From assembly GCA_964641245.1 (NCBI GenBank), contig CAZXML010000006.1:1-60354 (forward strand): a stretch of DNA of 60,354 bases, in the 5' to 3' direction. Positions within the stretch are counted from its first letter, which is position 1, and each line of letters opens with the position of its first letter. The translations under genes and the position numbers were made by a program. This DNA comes from an uncultured Gammaproteobacteria bacterium (GTDB taxonomy: Bacteria; Patescibacteriota; Patescibacteriia; Magasanikbacterales; GWA2-37-8). Below, piece after piece: positions 1 to 56,005 of this stretch. Below the pieces are notes generated by a model. The model did not search any database and had not been told where the DNA came from. It worked only from the letters and a program-made list of their open reading frames with translations.

Positions 1-3000
1 GACAAATTCTGCTTATAAAATCAACGGTACAAATGTCATCATTGCCCAACCAGCATTATCTAACTTCTTTTTCGGTAATTCAGGTAATTTGACGATGACG
101 GGGACCTATAACACCGCTATGGGTTATAATGCGCTCCTCAGCAACACCACCGGAAACACTAATTCCGCTATGGGTTTACAAGCGCTCTACAGCAACACCA
201 TCGGAACCCATAACACCGCTATGGGTTATAATGCGCTCCTCAGCAACACCACGGGGATCCATAATACCGCCATGGGTGTGAACGCGCTCTACGACCTCAA
301 TATCCTTGTTGGGACAGGAGCCAATACTGCCCTTGGCTATAACACCGGCAGAGGAATTATTACGGGTGTCAACAACACTATTATCGGAGCCAATGTTACA
401 GGGCTTACCTCCACACTTTCCAATAACATTATCATTGCGGACGGTGCCGGAAACCAAAGAATAAATATAGACGCAAACGGCTACGTTAGTTTCGGCACTA
501 CCACCCCCGTTGCTCAATTTTCTATCCAAGGGTTCGCCTCCAGCAGTCCTATTTTTGATGTAGCTTCATCATCTGGCGCAAGCCTTTTGCGCGTCCTCGC
601 CAACGGCAACATTGGCATCAATTCCTCCACTCCAATCGACACCCTCGCTGTTCAAGGCGGATTGCAAGTAGTAGGCGGAGTTACTTCCACAAATCTATAT
701 GTCTCCGGCATCACCAATCTTGGGGTCACTACTGTCTCTACACTCACTGCCACAAATGTTACCTCCACCAACGTTTCCAGTACCAATAGTTATTCCAATT
801 CATATACCGGTACTTGGAATGGAAACCTGCTTTCAATTACAGTCGGCGGCACCAACAGTTCCACCATTGGCCCGGCCGGCTCTGTCGCATATTCTAACGC
901 CAGCAGTTACTTGTTTACCGCCGCCGGTACAGCCGGACAAATTTTGCAGGCCAATGGCACCGGCGCTCCTACTTGGATAAATACCAGCACCATGGGATTT
1001 GTTAATCTGCAGGGCGTTACGTCCGGTACGCAACAAATTGGAAATTTTAATATTTCTGGTACAGGTCTTGTAGGTACGTCATTTGGTGTTAATACTACCA
1101 GCCCAATCGCTTCTTTGGCGGTGCAGGGAATTGGTGGAACTAACCCTTTTAGTATTAATTCCTCAACCGGAGCTTCTCTACTGGTTATTTTGCAAAACGG
1201 CAATGTTGGTATTGGAACTTCAACTCCCGCTTTCAAGATGGATGTTGCTGGAGATGTCAATATCACGACAAATTCTGCTTATAAAATCAACGGTACAAAT
1301 GTCATCATTGCCCAACCAGCACTAAGTAACTTCTTTTTCGGTAATTCAGGTAATTTGACGATGACGGGGAGCTATAACACCGCTATGGGTTCGCAAGCGC
1401 TCTACAGTAACACCGACGGAAGCAATAACACCGCTATGGGTGTACAAGCGCTCTTAAACAACACCACCGGAAGCGAAAACACCGCTTCGGGTATGTACGC
1501 GCTCTTAAACAACACCACCGGAAACTATAACACCGCTATGGGTATGTTCGCGCTCTTCGACTTCAATACCCTTGATGGGACAGGATCCAATACTGCCCTT
1601 GGCTATAACACCGGCAGAGGAATTTCTACAGGTGTCAACAACACCATTATCGGAGCCAATGTTACAGGGCTTGCCTCCGCACTTTCCAATAACATTATCA
1701 TTGCGGATGGTGCCGGAAACCAAAGAATAAATATAAACGCAAACGGCTACGCTAGTTTTGGCACTACCACCCCCGTTGCTCAATTTTCTATCCAAGGGTT
1801 CGCCTCCAGCAGTCCTATTTTTGATGTAGCTTCATCTTCTCTTTCCAGTTTATTTAGAATTTTAGCTAATGGTAATGTGGGTATCGGGACATCTTCTCCA
1901 AGCACCGCTCTGGCAGTAAATGGAACTTCTACGATGAATGGTTTACAAATTACAAACTTAGGGAGCGCGGCAGTACCCGCGATTGCGATAGGTACGGCCA
2001 CAGATGGTTTTTACCAACGAACCGCAACCACTTTGAATATAACTACTAATGGCGCGATAACTGCTGAATTTTATAATGGTGGACTCGCAAATAATCTTAT
2101 TTACACAGGCATTATCTCTAACGGTACTACTGCTGGGAGTAGTGCTGGGGGGCAAATAGACTTTGATGGTTCGGGAATGATTATGGGACTTACAACTGTT
2201 CCAACAATTCTGGCAATCAGAAATAAAACCGTATCTATCAACACCACATCCGTTTCCGCTTCGTTAATGGTTCAAAGCGCTCCCGGAGCCGTTCCGTTTT
2301 CGGTTGTTTCTTCTAGCGTTACCGAAACTTCAATGTTTAAAATATTATCAAATGGCAATGTGGGTGTTAATACTACCAGCCCAATCGCTTCTTTGGCGGT
2401 GCAGGGAATTGGTGGAACTAACCCTTTTAGTATTAATTCCTCAACCGGAGCTTCTCTACTGGTTATTTTGCAAAACGGCAATGTTGGTATTGGAACTTCA
2501 ACTCCCGCTTTCAAGATGGATGTTGCTGGAGATGTCAATATCACGACAAATTCTGCTTATAAAATCAACGGTACAAATGTCATCATTGCCCAACCAGAAT
2601 TAAGTAACTTCTTTTTCGGTAATTCAGGTAATTTGACGATGACGGGCGGCTATAACACCGCCTCGGGTTACCAAGCGCTCAACAGCAACACCGCCGGAAC
2701 CGATAACACCGCTATGGGTATGCAAGCGCTCTACAGCAACACCATCGGAAACTATAACACCGCTATGGGTGAGGCTGCGCTTTACAACAACACCACCGGA
2801 GACCAAAACACCGCCTCGGGTGCGTATGCGCTCTACAGCAACACCACCGGATTCTATAACACCGCCTTGGGCATGTACACGCTCCTCAACCTCAATATCC
2901 TTAATGAGACAGGAGCCAATACTGCCATTGGCTATAACACCGGAGGAGGAATTATTACAGGTGTCAACAACACCATTATCGGAGCCAATGTTACAGGGCT

Positions 3001-42165: not shown

Positions 42166-42240
42166 CGTCTGCCTCCGTTGTTGGGTGTGTATTTCATCCT
42201 AGATTAAAAGGCGCGAATTGTCAATATATGAGTAATTAAA

Positions 42241-42267
42241 AATCATCCCGATTATATCGGGATGATT
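42241..42267 (-). terminator. Terminator hairpin downstream of tRNA-Leu(TAA).
   Basis: AATCATCCCGA-ttata-TCGGGATGATT, with a T-run on the minus strand (the A-run at 42236-42240). Confidence 0.6.
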
Positions 42268-42273
42268 TGTTTG

Positions 42274-42356
42274 TGCCCAGGGCGGGAGTCGAACCCGCAT
42301 GACCGAAGTCGCAGGATTTTAAGTCCTGTGTGGCTGACCAGTTACACCACCTGGGC
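42274..42356 (-). tRNA. tRNA-Leu (anticodon TAA).
   Basis: Minus-strand parse: acceptor GCCCAGG/CCTGGGC. Anticodon arm is CAGGA-CTTAAAA-TCCTG. Long variable arm is CGACTTCGGTCAT. T arm is GCGGG-TTCGACT-CCCGC. Confidence 0.85.
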
Positions 42357-53815: not shown

Positions 53816-54940
53816 TTATATTTTTGGCGTAAAAATATTTTTCAATATAATCTCGCCAGCATTTGGGTGAGATTTTTTTTGAATGAGAGTTGGATTTGAA
53901 AGTAGGGTTTGGATTTTTTTGGCCAGATCATCGCTTGAATTCGCTCTTAAGCCGTAATGATTTTTTTCCAGATACGTCGCGTTGTAATCTTCCTGTCCTG
54001 GGATAGGATTTATAATTATAATAGGCTTTTGCAAAAACATAACCTCGGAAACGGTTAGTCCGCCCGCCTTGCCAACTATTACATCCGCAATCCGCATCCA
54101 TTCGTCTATATTATCGGCATTTTTTAAAATAGTAAAATTCCTTTGTCCGGCATCCTTTATATCTTCCAAATCCTTAAAAAGTTCTTGATTAGTATTGCCT
54201 GAAATAGCCACCACATTCACATTCTTATTTTGAGAAAAAATTGCCGGTACCGCGTCTTTGGCGCTGATTTTACCGCTGGAGATGGGCATGATTAAAATTG
54301 TTGGCCAGTCATTATTTATATTCAGTTTCCTTTTTAATTCAGCAGTATTTTTGACGGCAAAAAAACTGGCGTGAAGAGGCAAACCGCTGGCGATGCTTTT
54401 TATGCCTTTTTTTTCCAGTTCAATTTTTGTTTCTTCGCTGGCGACAAAAAAATTGCGTACACAAGGGGCCAGCCAGATTTGATGAGCGTGATAATCGGTA
54501 ATTACCGTGTCCAGAGGTATAGAAAAATTTTTAGGGAATAAGAGTTGAGGAGAAAACTGGGTGGAAACTATATAATCCGGCCGGAATTCCTCTATTTTTT
54601 TTAAAAATTTCCTCGCGCCTAATTTAAAAAACGGTCTAAGACCTATCAATATTTTCTGTGTGAAAGGTTTGTCGGTTAAGTGGTAGATAAATTTATAAGT
54701 TCTGGGGATGTGGTTGATGAATGTGTTGTAGGATGAAACCGAAAAAGCGCGGGCAAACCCGGAAAGATAATCCGCCAAATCTATATGAAGCACCTGAACA
54801 TCGGGGTATAGTTTTTGAGAAGCTAAACGCAATGCCTCGGCCGCGCGGAAATGTCCGGAGCCGGTGGAGCACGAAACAATAAGAAGTTTTTTCCCGCCAA
54901 AGCGGGATCCCGCCTCATGGCGGTGATAAATGTTGGACAT
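53816..54940 (-). CDS. GT28-family glycosyltransferase (MGDG-synthase / diacylglycerol glycosyltransferase-like).
   Basis: KKLLIVSCSTGSGHFRAAEAL N-terminal motif and C-terminal GKAGGLTVSEVMFLQKPIIIINPIPGQE. The start is moved to ATG 54940, because the 54985 start overlaps tRNA-His. Confidence 0.65.
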   Translation of the reverse strand: MSNIYHRHEAGSRFGGKKLLIVSCSTGSGHFRAAEALRLASQKLYPDVQVLHIDLADYLSGFARAFSVSSYNTFINHIPRTYKFIYHLTDKPFTQKILIGLRPFFKLGARKFLKKIEEFRPDYIVSTQFSPQLLFPKNFSIPLDTVITDYHAHQIWLAPCVRNFFVASEETKIELEKKGIKSIASGLPLHASFFAVKNTAELKRKLNINNDWPTILIMPISSGKISAKDAVPAIFSQNKNVNVVAISGNTNQELFKDLEDIKDAGQRNFTILKNADNIDEWMRIADVIVGKAGGLTVSEVMFLQKPIIIINPIPGQEDYNATYLEKNHYGLRANSSDDLAKKIQTLLSNPTLIQKKSHPNAGEIILKNIFTPKI

Positions 54941-54943
54941 ATT

Positions 54944-55019
54944 TGGGGTGCCTAATGGGAGTCGAACCCATGTTGCGAGATCCACAATCTCACGTAATAA
55001 CCGTTATACCATAGGCACC
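54944..55019 (-). tRNA. tRNA-His (anticodon GTG) with encoded G-1 and CCA.
   Basis: Minus strand: G-GTGCCTA...TGAGA-TTGTGGA-TCTCG...ATGGG-TTCGACT-CCCAT-TAGGCAC-C-CCA. Confidence 0.85.
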
Positions 55020-55036
55020 ATATCGACGACGTCCTG

Positions 55037-55108
55037 TGTTCCCAGTAGGAATCGAACCTACACATCCAGCTTAGAAGGCTAGTGTCCTATCCATTAAACG
55101 ATGGGAAC
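55037..55108 (-). tRNA. tRNA-Arg (anticodon TCT).
   Basis: Minus strand: acceptor GTTCCCA/TGGGAAC. Anticodon arm is CTAGC-CTTCTAA-GCTGG. T arm is GTAGG-TTCGATT-CCTAC. Discriminator is A. Confidence 0.85.
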
Positions 55109-55357
55109 ATTGCTATTTTTTGAATTAATCAATCGTTCAATTGCCTTTCTGCTTTTCCATTTTTTAATTTGGTATTCTCTACTTTGTGCATCGGAGCGAT
55201 TTTGATATGGCTCTGTATATACTAACATACACGGCAATTTACTTTTCGTCGAGAAAACCCTGCCTCGGTCATGGTCGGCTTTCCGGCTAACCAGGTCGCT
55301 CGTGCTTCCAATGTAGTATGAACCATCGCTTAACTTGATGATGTATACGTGGTACAT
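55094..55357 (-). CDS. Small GIY-YIG nuclease (UPF0213/YhbQ-like). Its last 5 codons and stop codon lie inside tRNA-Arg.
   Basis: MYHVYIIKLSDGSYYIGSTSDLVSRKADH...REYQIKKW carries the GIY-(10)-YIG motif, the Arg, and the Glu. The start is moved to ATG 55357, because the upstream part of the track ORF reads through a palindromic repeat. Confidence 0.7.
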   Translation of the reverse strand: MYHVYIIKLSDGSYYIGSTSDLVSRKADHDRGRVFSTKSKLPCMLVYTEPYQNRSDAQSREYQIKKWKSRKAIERLINSKNSNVPIV

Positions 55358-55373
55358 ATGGAAGAGTAGTGTC

Positions 55374-55436
55374 TCCCGACTTTGCCTTTGGCGGCAAAGT
55401 CGCGGATCCTCGATTTTGCTCGAAGCAAAATCGGGA
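55374..55436. repeat. TCCCGA...TCGGGA nested palindromic element, related to the inner hairpins of 17810 and 46961.
   Basis: tcccgaC-TTTGCC-tttggc-GGCAAAG-tcgcggatcctcga-TTTTGCT-cgaa-GCAAAA-tcggga. Confidence 0.75.
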
Positions 55437-55458
55437 CTATCCATTAAACGATGGAGAC
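55437..55458 (-). pseudogene. Orphan duplicate of the 5' acceptor/D-arm segment of tRNA-Arg(TCT).
   Basis: ctatccattaaacgatggagac matches 55087-55108 (ctatccattaaacgatgggaac) at 20 of 22 positions. Confidence 0.7.
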
Positions 55459-55547
55459 CCGAGACTTTTGACTCGTTCGCTATCATATACTATTTTTACA
55501 GATTAATCAAGGTGTGGTATCATATGGGGTAGTTTATCATAATTTGT

Positions 55548-55895
55548 ATGTATAGAAGAATTTTTATATTTCTGGTTTTTACTCTAATAATTCTTGGTCC
55601 TGCTCGTCCGGCATTGGCTCAATTTGGCTTAGATAAAAGCGGCCCAACGGCGGGTTATGGAGAGACTAATATTTATTCCACCATTAGCACTGTCATCAGC
55701 GTTGTACTATCCGTTGCCGGTTTGGTTTTTTTGGCTATTATGTTTTATGCCGGCCTGCGCTGGATGACTGCCCGCGGCAATGAAGAATTTATCTCCAAGG
55801 CAAAAGGAGCTATGTTTGGAGCGCTGATCGGGTTCATTTTAGTCACAATTTCTTATGGCGCTTCCGCCTTTATTTTCAGCAAGTTGATTAATTAA
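55548..55895 (+). CDS. VirB2/TrbC-like protein, paralog 9.
   Basis: The signal peptide ends in ALAQ. The core is YAGLRWMTARGNEEFISKAKGAMFGALIGFILVTISY. Confidence 0.65.
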   Translation: MYRRIFIFLVFTLIILGPARPALAQFGLDKSGPTAGYGETNIYSTISTVISVVLSVAGLVFLAIMFYAGLRWMTARGNEEFISKAKGAMFGALIGFILVTISYGASAFIFSKLIN

Positions 55896-55896
55896 T

Positions 55897-55998
55897 TTGT
55901 CATTGCGAGGAGGTCTTGGCGACCGACGAAGCAATCCCAAAGTACTGGTTGGTACTAACAATGGGATTGCCACGTCGCTACGGCTCCTCGCAATGACA
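55897..55998. repeat. TTGTCAT...ATGACA element, TTGCGAG / AATCCCA subtype.
   Basis: ttgtcattgcgagg...gaagcaatccca-aagtactggttggtactaaca-atgggattgc...cctcgcaatgaca. Confidence 0.85.
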
Positions 55999-56005
55999 CG
56001 CCAAC

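Follow-up and report, generated by a model that had tools for sequence, protein, structure and literature searches.

The DNA analyzed here, referred to below as the window, is a stretch of 60,354 nt on contig CAZXML010000006.1 of assembly GCA_964641245.1, a genome of the Patescibacteria or candidate phyla radiation (CPR). On the minus strand of this window, a short gene for a GIY-YIG nuclease lies between a 5' fragment of a tRNA-Arg gene and an intact tRNA-Arg(TCT) gene, and the unit that carries the nuclease gene is referred to as the cassette. Besides the 5' fragment, three parts of this locus had been named in an initial annotation, and all three were recovered in our analysis: an 87-aa GIY-YIG gene at 55357-55094 (Pfam PF01541), a 63-nt palindromic repeat, which consists of two perfect 10-bp hairpins and will be called the double hairpin (DH), and the intact tRNA-Arg downstream, which ARAGORN and Rfam place at 55108-55036. 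Read along the minus strand, the features of the locus are as follows.

55482 to 55510, minus strand: host tRNA promoter, TTGATT-17 nt-TATGAT, the sole minus-strand promoter-like site in 54850-55650
55437 to 55458, minus strand: orphan tRNA-Arg positions 1-22, GTCTCCATCGTTTAATGGATAG, of the resident allele; 20/22 identical to the working tRNA
55374 to 55436, no strand assigned: DH, 63 nt, two perfect 10-bp hairpins around the dyad axis GGATCC
55436 to 55407: hairpin 1 of the DH, TCC-CGATTTTGCT..AGCAAAATCG-A-GGA
55406 to 55374: hairpin 2 of the DH, TCC-G-CGACTTTGCC..GGCAAAGTCG-GGA
55361 to 55373, minus strand: orphan tRNA-Arg positions 23-35, GACACTACTCTTC; 11/13 identical to the working tRNA and collinear with the first piece
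55094 to 55357, minus strand: GIY-YIG nuclease gene, 87 aa, Pfam PF01541
55036 to 55108, minus strand: working tRNA-Arg(TCT), allele GTTCCCA..TGGGAAC, called by ARAGORN and scored at 63.4 bits by the Rfam tRNA model
54944 to 55018, minus strand: tRNA-His(GTG), 17 nt downstream and co-oriented, scored at 59.6 bits by the Rfam tRNA model

The upstream fragment, which we call the orphan, had been described as tRNA positions 1-22 with 20 of 22 bases identical. That match stands but its extent does not, as the orphan resumes after the DH with positions 23-35. With the DH removed, the orphan corresponds to tRNA-Arg positions 1-35 (31/35 identical) and ends inside the anticodon, three bases 5' of the ATG of the nuclease gene. 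The segment 55458-55437 and the working tRNA are the only two matches in the window when up to three mismatches are allowed, and none of 100 shuffled sequences gave a match. Two separate interruptions are therefore present in the window, one by the DH at 22|23 and one by the nuclease gene and a complete new tRNA at 35|36. This differs from the insertion into the D-loop that had been proposed: the tRNA is broken in the anticodon, and what interrupts the D-loop is a DH, inserted separately, that falls at other positions at other loci. At the 3' side, the nuclease open reading frame (ORF) runs into the working tRNA by 15 nt. Its last four codons, GTT CCC ATC GTT (V-P-I-V), and the TAA at 55096-55094 are tRNA-Arg positions 1-15, with the stop codon at positions 13-15; the overlap had been counted as five codons plus the stop.

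An Rfam scan of 54500-56000 (E ≤ 10) returned the two tRNAs and chance matches, with no intron and no family over the DH. A group I intron was rejected as an explanation on this ground and also because the interrupted copy has no 3' half and is followed by a complete second tRNA. An integrase-type element was rejected as well, since the unit holds the 87-aa GIY-YIG ORF alone and the repeated part is the 5' part of the tRNA. A search for further copies of the cassette had been suggested, and we found neither a second GIY-YIG copy nor a second DH within the 60-kb window. The arrangement is real and not an artefact; it recurs in many independent assemblies, as described below.

To identify the same locus in relatives, the neighboring glycosyltransferase and tRNA-Arg positions 5-43 were used as queries, which returned the locus on 12 other contigs (comparator loci are denoted by L-numbers). 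The common order is a pilin gene, the promoter, tRNA-Arg, tRNA-His, and the glycosyltransferase. In six of these (L078, L079/L091, L086, L087, L089, and L092), tRNA-Arg is uninterrupted and the cassette is absent, so that the comparison of related genomes suggested by the initial annotation yields six syntenic empty sites. Alignment of the window with the empty sites shows one net insertion of exactly 350 nt. The promoter motif TTGATTA..TATGMT is found directly upstream of the uninterrupted tRNA-Arg in L078, L079, L086, L087, and L092. In the leader, L087 is the closest to the window (90% identical over 83 nt), and it is also the closest in the spacer between tRNA-Arg and tRNA-His.

The empty sites also indicate which of the two tRNA copies is the resident one. 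Positions 1-22 of the orphan are identical at 22/22 bases to the uninterrupted tRNA-Arg of L078, L086, L087, and L092 (GTCTCCA...TGGAGAC). The working tRNA (GTTCCCA...TGGGAAC) differs from this GTCTCC..GGAGAC allele by two compensated base pairs, 3-70 and 4-69, and the GTTCCC..GGGAAC allele was met only at interrupted sites, namely the window, L084, and L090, which are 100% identical over 76 nt. This pattern is consistent with co-conversion, on a basis of three loci and among relatives whose flanking protein is 72-83% identical and in which acceptor-stem variants are common. The pattern, in which the unconstrained orphan keeps the resident allele and the working gene differs on both acceptor strands, is predicted by import of the working tRNA along with the insert and not by local duplication and decay. 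The displacement of the original 5' piece, as first proposed, is thereby supported. The proposal of a cassette of about 350 nt that brings its own replacement for the tRNA 5' segment agrees with the net 350-nt indel and with the alleles, except that the imported segment is probably the whole tRNA and not 22 nt, since the 3' acceptor strand differs too. On the whole, the central reading of the initial annotation is largely upheld, with corrections to the point of insertion and to the part played by the palindrome.

Some further variation was seen at this locus in relatives. In L084 and L088, the orphan reaches position 42, and a 30-nt mini-hairpin pair (CCCGCCAAAGGCGGG and TGCGCCYYRGGCGCA) sits exactly at 35|36, the breakpoint of the window; L084 has an additional 36-nt palindrome in the D-loop at about 21/22. 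In L080 (2329-2996), a 147-aa LAGLIDADG ORF (2475-2918) lies between tRNA-Arg and tRNA-His, and the tRNA-His that follows it has an allele unlike that of most relatives. A candidate decayed 5' fragment of tRNA-His before this ORF was too weak to be used, as 7-12 of 300 shuffles were as good.

To establish whether the arrangement is particular to tRNA-Arg, we inspected the gene contexts of 31 close homologues of the nuclease, complemented by a scan of one genome per species. All 31 are from Patescibacteria-type metagenome bins. Among homologues of at least 50% identity, a tRNA gene on the same strand was found between -22 and +247 nt from the ORF stop in 19 of the 19 that could be assessed. Bacterial genomes have a few dozen tRNA genes per megabase, and, as a rough argument, an adjacency of 19/19 is for that reason not due to chance. 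The partners are tRNA-Glu (TTC and CTC), tRNA-Arg-GCG, tRNA-Gln-CTG, and tRNA-Ala (TGC and GGC), which together with the Arg-TCT of the window make seven tRNA species, and the neighboring genes vary from locus to locus. Homologues of less than 50% identity are mostly from Firmicutes and other phyla, and of these only L069 (37% identity) is adjacent to a tRNA, with a gap of 123 nt to a tRNA-Ala.

Most of these loci have, upstream of the ORF, an orphan of the local tRNA that begins precisely at +1 and runs to a point within positions 13-37. The orphans are split by a DH of the same design at 4|5, 7|8, 9|10, 11|12, 15|16, 18|19, 21|22, or 22|23. In 8 of the 20 other tabulated loci, the ORF ends inside the tRNA, at a D-loop TAA (positions 13-15) or TAG (positions 20-22); at the remaining ones, the stop lies 0-15 nt before +1, or a second DH abuts +1. 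The overlap of ORF and tRNA is thus a by-product of a tight junction and not a conserved device. The same architecture, seen at about 20 independent loci and seven tRNA species, supports the likeness that had been noted to tRNA-targeting integrative elements, mirrored to the 5' side.

Two of the contexts are more elaborate. L069 (2290-2960) and L022 (2380-3070) hold tandem arrays at tRNA-Ala, each with a pair of orphan 5' halves and a pair of hairpin elements in series. One of the L069 orphans has an acceptor and anticodon stem that is incompatible with the 3' half of the local tRNA and resembles the tRNA-Ala of L025. These arrays suggest repeated invasion or a foreign origin. In a third case, L001 (from 1520) and L011 (from 2822) are 88-100% identical across the upstream region, the cassette, and tRNA-Glu, and become unalignable right after the 3' end of the tRNA (39% over 170 aligned positions, with 160 gap columns). 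The drop in identity indicates that a recombination boundary coincides with the tRNA 3' end.

The same design was also found at the starts of protein-coding genes. In L030 (2447-2840), an in-frame fusion joins codons 1-12 of topA to an element; next come CAAAAACA and a complete topA that encodes the Pfam Toprim and Topoisom_bac domains. The nuclease stop overlaps the ATG of the restored topA (ATGA). Between the two copies of the 37-nt duplicated segment, 11 positions differ, almost all of them synonymously, which indicates orthologous alleles of separate lineages and not a freshly made target duplication. In L053 (2445-2830), an element sits in the gene start of a small Cys-rich protein, again with a duplicated gene start. 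At both loci, the element lies within the first 11-12 codons and is followed by a conserved CAAAAA spacer.

We next consider the DH, of which 26 were collected from the loci of relatives, giving 52 hairpin units. The DH of the window has a fold z score of -5.1. The general design is TCC-CGA-[stem/loop]-TCG-A-GGA / TCC-N-CGA-[stem/loop]-TCG-GGA around a GGATCC dyad, and it reads the same on both strands. In the 52 units, 585 of 588 stem pairs are Watson-Crick, three are G-T, and none is a mismatch; the upper stems have 40 different sequences. A one-base bulge is present in 51 of the 52 units, and where the base is TGC...GCA instead of TCC...GGA, the change is compensated. The dyad symmetry and the near-absence of wobble pairs suggest a structure formed at the level of DNA, or a site bound by a dimer, in preference to an RNA specific to one strand; a structured RNA is an unlikely alternative for an element that is the same on both strands and has G-T pairs at 3/588. 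No target duplication flanks any DH. The DH also occurs alone (L002 at 3340 and L021 at 3618) and exactly at -1|+1 of the working tRNA in L013, L018, L020, L023, and L029. Compared with the criteria for miniature transposable elements with inverted repeats (MITEs) and repetitive extragenic palindromic (REP) sequences, the DH has inverted repeats and ORF-less copies across genomes, with one copy in the 60 kb of the window and without target duplication. Neither the DH nor the orphan is drifting, and both are under constraint: promoter, leader, orphan, and DH (150 nt) are 97.3% identical between L001 and L011, as against 73% for the third codon positions of the ORF.

A relation between the DH and the nuclease gene is suggested by L028, L069, L036, L030, and L053, where the two arms of DH hairpin 1 enclose the ORF, for example as TCCCGATTTTGT-[ORF]-ACAAAATCGAGGA-hairpin 2-TCGGGA. 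Because the ORF of these relatives sits between those arms, the 63-nt DH is, judging by this arrangement, the ORF-less form of the nuclease element. It is probably also the structure or site on which the SLX1-like nuclease acts.

Two smaller hairpins elsewhere in the window share features with the DH. A 39-nt in-frame insertion (54893-54931, minus strand) occupies codons 4-16 of the glycosyltransferase gene (53819-54940) and folds as a small double hairpin about GGGATCCC (CACCGCCATGAGGCGG GATCC CGCTTTGGCGGG). The window and L079 share this insertion, which the L078 and L080 orthologues lack; in appearance it is a relative of the DH, reduced in size and lodged within a coding region. A perfect 13-bp hairpin (AAATCATCCCGAT / ATCGGGATGATTT, 42240-42268) adjoins the 3' end of tRNA-Leu(TAA) (42273-42356, minus strand) and holds the CCCGAT/ATCGGG core of the DH arms. 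This hairpin may simply be a terminator.

The nuclease itself matches Pfam PF01541 over residues 1-70 with 53.5 bits (cut-off 22.6, E = 3.1e-14). The residues of the GIY-YIG catalytic motif, Y5, Y15, G17, R25, H29, and E49, show no variation across 32 sequences, that of the window among them. Profile matches to the PDB are strongest for BH0048 (1zg2, 1.7e-13) and EF2693 (1ywl, 5e-11), followed by SLX1 (2.8e-4) and I-TevI (0.18). From these sequence comparisons, the protein is assigned to the UPF0213/YhbQ family as a minimal, single-domain GIY-YIG nuclease with an SLX1-like URI domain. The domain spans residues 1-77, and the C-terminal tail, which varies among loci, is the translated 5' end of the tRNA. 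Domain coverage and the alignment leave no separate DNA-binding module in the 87-aa protein. NCBIfam gave no match for the nuclease, PHROGs gave only weak "endonuclease" matches, and a database look-up of the exact protein found no record. In viral contigs, neither a relative of the protein nor the DH pattern was found, and hence there is no sign of a phage vector.

The ratio of nonsynonymous to synonymous substitution rates (dN/dS) is 0.03-0.07 where it can be measured, and 0.07 between L001 and L011. Between the window and L001, the proportions of nonsynonymous and synonymous differences are 0.085 (pN) and 0.74 (pS), and synonymous sites are saturated between copies at different tRNAs. The substitution pattern shows that the nuclease has been kept intact under purifying selection. 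In a distance tree of the ORFs, which is built on about 80 residues and is indicative only, sister pairs have different tRNA species and a common DH position: the window (Arg-TCT) with L011 (Glu-TTC) at 22|23, L015 (Arg-GCG) with L021 (Glu-TTC) at 7|8, and L024 (Gln) with L026 (Glu-CTC) at 11|12. The skeleton of orphan, DH, and ORF thus seems to pass on as one unit through a change of target.

A longer form of the nuclease, a 130-aa ORF from 55486 that would start at the ATG in the orphan D-loop and read through the DH, was considered and rejected because the extension exists in only 5 of the 31 homologues, all domains start at the downstream Met, and the extension is a translated hairpin. It should be noted that the database entries P0008, P0011, P0014, P0022, and P0028 begin at this D-loop ATG ("MVSPDS...GSSIL..."). 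Their spurious N-terminal extensions of 25-40 aa are an annotation artefact of the cassette architecture.

Our current hypothesis, which we regard as probable, is that a selfish, homing-type cassette has invaded the 5' half of tRNA-Arg(TCT) and brings with it a replacement 5' end or a whole tRNA. The resident tRNA-Arg would have been broken at 35|36 inside the anticodon, its first 35 nt remaining as the orphan behind the native promoter, and the cassette would have supplied the nuclease ORF followed by a complete replacement tRNA-Arg of another allele. With a complete replacement, a working tRNA is kept without splicing. No terminator was found between the promoter at 55482..55510 and the tRNAs, and a single transcript from the strong tRNA promoter would cover the orphan, DH, ORF, tRNA-Arg, and tRNA-His. 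The ORF, having no stop of its own, would be read into the tRNA as far as the D-loop TAA. RNase P cleavage at +1 would then remove the stop codon, and it is a reasonable inference that, as the initial annotation held, translation of the nuclease and maturation of the tRNA compete for one RNA.

Spread of the cassette would follow the scheme of free-standing homing endonuclease genes, in which an uninterrupted tRNA gene is cut by the nuclease and then repaired with the filled allele as template, so that the cassette is copied into it. Both homology arms would be tRNA sequence, the left one being the orphan and the right one the working tRNA. Such arms would account for the intact orphans and, given the conservation of tRNA sequence, would open a way for transfer from one species to another. 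The data show the insertion with its boundaries, the empty sites, the pattern of alleles, the recurrence at other tRNAs and gene starts, the purifying selection, and the anatomy of the DH; what we infer in this scheme is the specificity of the nuclease, the mechanism of homing, co-transcription, and what the DH does. As a more general and tentative proposal, which we rate at somewhat below an even chance, the cassette would represent an undescribed class of mobile element in Patescibacteria. Elements of this class would combine an 80-90-aa SLX1-like nuclease with a dyad-symmetric DH in which it is nested or to which it is linked, would invade tRNAs, topA, and other essential genes within their first ~35 nt, and would survive by means of a replacement 5' end and a hijacked promoter or start codon; the DH would be the substrate of the nuclease, and there would be MITE-like ORF-less derivatives.

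Several observations weigh against the homing hypothesis. All comparator loci are metagenome assemblies, and the 60-kb window holds one cassette only. The 87-aa protein is a bare catalytic domain, unlike characterized homing enzymes; the Seg proteins, for instance, have a DNA-binding domain besides the catalytic domain. L084, L085, and L088 have the orphan, palindromes, and a full tRNA with no detectable remnant of the ORF, which means that the partial duplication is possible without a nuclease gene in cis. Remnants of the nuclease gene were sought in all four ORF-less interrupted sites (L084, L085, L088, and L090) and none was found. These sites may be later stages or non-autonomous relatives, and to call them degenerated cassettes is an assumption. 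The strong purifying selection and the conserved orphans are also compatible with a role that benefits the host. Finally, homing as outlined leaves three points unexplained. The rebuilt tRNA restores any target that lies wholly inside the tRNA, so that the immunity of filled alleles is not accounted for, and the tandem arrays of L069 and L022 may reflect re-invasion. The origin of the first orphan-ORF-tRNA arrangement is not accounted for either, nor is the switch of tRNA species with the DH kept at the same relative position.

Other explanations make sense of parts of these data. In one that we consider unlikely, the element is a transposon-like unit bounded by palindromes, in which an SLX1-like nuclease inserts the DH with or without the ORF by structure-specific cut-and-paste or copy-in. 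The 5' duplication would then be made de novo at each insertion, for instance by widely staggered nicks or by unequal exchange between copies at -1|+1 and inside the gene, and not carried by a donor. Insertion of the DH without target duplication at many orphan positions and also at -1|+1 of working tRNAs would follow naturally, as would the solo DHs in L002 and L021 and the match of orphans to their own local tRNA at seven tRNA species; moreover, perfect dyad-symmetric hairpins suit a dimeric structure-specific nuclease, and SLX1 is among the closest solved homologues. A fresh duplication should however give identical copies, and those of the window and of L030 differ by compensated or synonymous changes. 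The duplication also always begins at a functional start, either tRNA +1 or a start codon, which a staggered DNA cut cannot "know," and there is a single DH in 60 kb. Domestication, an improbable account in our view, would make the nuclease a host gene tied to tRNA operons, for instance for the repair or processing of nucleic acids or for control of tRNA expression by way of the common transcript, with the orphan and DH as its regulatory 5' leader and mobility in the past. This would agree with the dN/dS of 0.03-0.07, with a promoter, orphan, and DH that are better conserved than synonymous sites, with the constant position upstream of a tRNA in 19/19 close homologues, and with the age of the copies at different tRNAs, as judged from synonymous saturation. 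It fits poorly with presence and absence that vary at the same locus among close relatives, with tRNA partners and neighborhoods that differ, and with relatives that invade topA and another gene start by the same design. GIY-YIG ORFs have, in addition, been reported in non-intron insertions of CPR rRNA genes (PMC11270868).

An ordinary tandem duplication of tRNA-Arg, whose decayed upstream copy became a landing pad for unrelated palindromes and a stray nuclease gene, strikes us as very improbable. The scenario that the initial annotation had itself set against its reading, tandem copies with decay of the upstream one independent of the nuclease, is approached at L084, L085, and L088, where an upstream partial tRNA-Arg (up to position 42) with palindromes occurs without a nuclease ORF or remnant. 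The upstream copy is nevertheless never complete: it starts at +1 and stops by about position 42, and 0 of ~25 loci have a 3' part. A single tRNA-Arg is the common state, being found in six relatives; it is the orphan and not the working copy that has the relatives' allele; and the arrangement is met again at seven tRNA species as well as at the starts of protein genes. Least probable of all, and in our estimate close to negligible, is Campbell-type integration of a circle by site-specific or homologous crossover in the tRNA 5' part, mirroring what integrases do at tRNA 3' ends. A single crossover between the chromosome and a circle that carries tRNA(1..y) would indeed give the order orphan(1..y)-ORF-tRNA(1..76), and the ORF stop in the tRNA 5' end would be an element-internal junction. 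Neither the window nor the contexts that we examined have a recombinase gene beside the cassette, and the working tRNA has the non-resident allele on its 3' acceptor strand too, which a crossover confined to the 5' part would not give.

Compared with known systems, the cassette recalls several and is identical to none. Integrase-type islands and prophages duplicate the 3' part of a tRNA gene and use a tyrosine or serine recombinase. As in the cassette, such an element carries a partial copy of the tRNA, its insertion regenerates an intact gene, and a partial duplicate is left at the other end; the cassette differs by its 5' duplication, the lack of an adjoining recombinase gene, and a size of only 350 nt. 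The REP sequences with their associated tyrosine transposases (RAYTs), MITEs, and the Rickettsia palindromic elements are likewise short, palindromic repeats with conserved structure, an associated protein gene, ORF-less copies, and intragenic sites. The DH is set apart from these by a GIY-YIG nuclease in place of an HUH or DDE transposase, by the absence of a target-site duplication, by an apparently low copy number (one per 60 kb), and by its tight linkage to tRNA 5' ends. Proteins of the UPF0213/YhbQ/COG2827 group and SLX1 belong to the same sequence family as the nuclease, with a single domain and the conserved Tyr/Tyr/Arg/His/Glu residues. In the literature that we searched, no role in a mobile element, no tRNA linkage, and no palindrome is described for the UPF0213/YhbQ family.

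The closest parallel is found in fungal mitochondria, where mobile ORFs (mORFs) in Allomyces atp6 and in Glomus atp6, atp9, cox2, and nad3 consist of an endonuclease gene that carries a replacement for the C-terminal end of its host gene (PMC3630166). The endonuclease is of the LAGLIDADG type or, in atp9, of the GIY-YIG type; the native gene end is displaced as an unexpressed duplicate in agreement with close relatives, and the carried end has diverged, for the most part by synonymous changes (PMC3630166). The mORFs and the cassette share a free-standing endonuclease ORF with a carried replacement gene end, and the same allele pattern is seen in the window and in the topA of L030. The cassette is a mirror image: its duplication concerns the 5' end, and the native piece is left upstream, next to the promoter. 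It is also unlike mORFs in its location on Patescibacteria chromosomes, its tRNA targets, its bare domain of 80-90 aa, and its conserved DH with ORF-less copies. We use this likeness as a working analogy and do not propose common descent. SegB of phage T4 is a GIY-YIG homing enzyme encoded among tRNA genes that recognizes a conserved tRNA-gene sequence and drives the co-inheritance of the segB gene itself with the neighboring tRNA genes (PMC2330249). SegB differs from the cassette in being intergenic, in leaving no duplicated tRNA fragment, and in belonging to a phage and not to a cellular element. A survey of CPR rRNA genes found GIY-YIG ORFs in non-intron insertions and drew no link to homing (PMC11270868). 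Those insertions concern the same host group and protein superfamily as the cassette and interrupt genes for structural RNAs without being group I or group II introns; unlike the present case, no tRNA targets, partial duplication, or palindrome were described (PMC11270868). In the full-text literature, we found no account of a module made of a tRNA 5' duplication, a GIY-YIG gene, and a hairpin, a search whose coverage excludes most subscription journals, so that a prior description is possible. The cassette design appears to be undescribed.

If the homing hypothesis is true, the cassette would illustrate a third way for a selfish gene to persist inside an essential gene. Introns and inteins are removed by splicing; this element would replace the 5' end of its host gene and take over the promoter, a logic documented until now only as its 3'-end mirror in fungal mitochondria. 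It would also assign a concrete role and testable substrates, namely tRNA-gene DNA and the DH, to the large and uncharacterized UPF0213/YhbQ family, and would provide a route for the horizontal replacement of tRNA alleles in CPR bacteria. Should the DH be the substrate of the nuclease, a new mobility mechanism based on a nuclease plus a structure would be at hand. The cassette also accounts for recurrent tRNA fragments and over-long gene calls in CPR annotations.

The locus is flanked by small genes. In the window they are represented at 55548-55895 on the plus strand, and annotations of relatives place such genes in PF18895 (T4SS_pilin). Genes of this family form arrays of six to seven consecutive paralogues in L079 and L080 and were also noted at L081.

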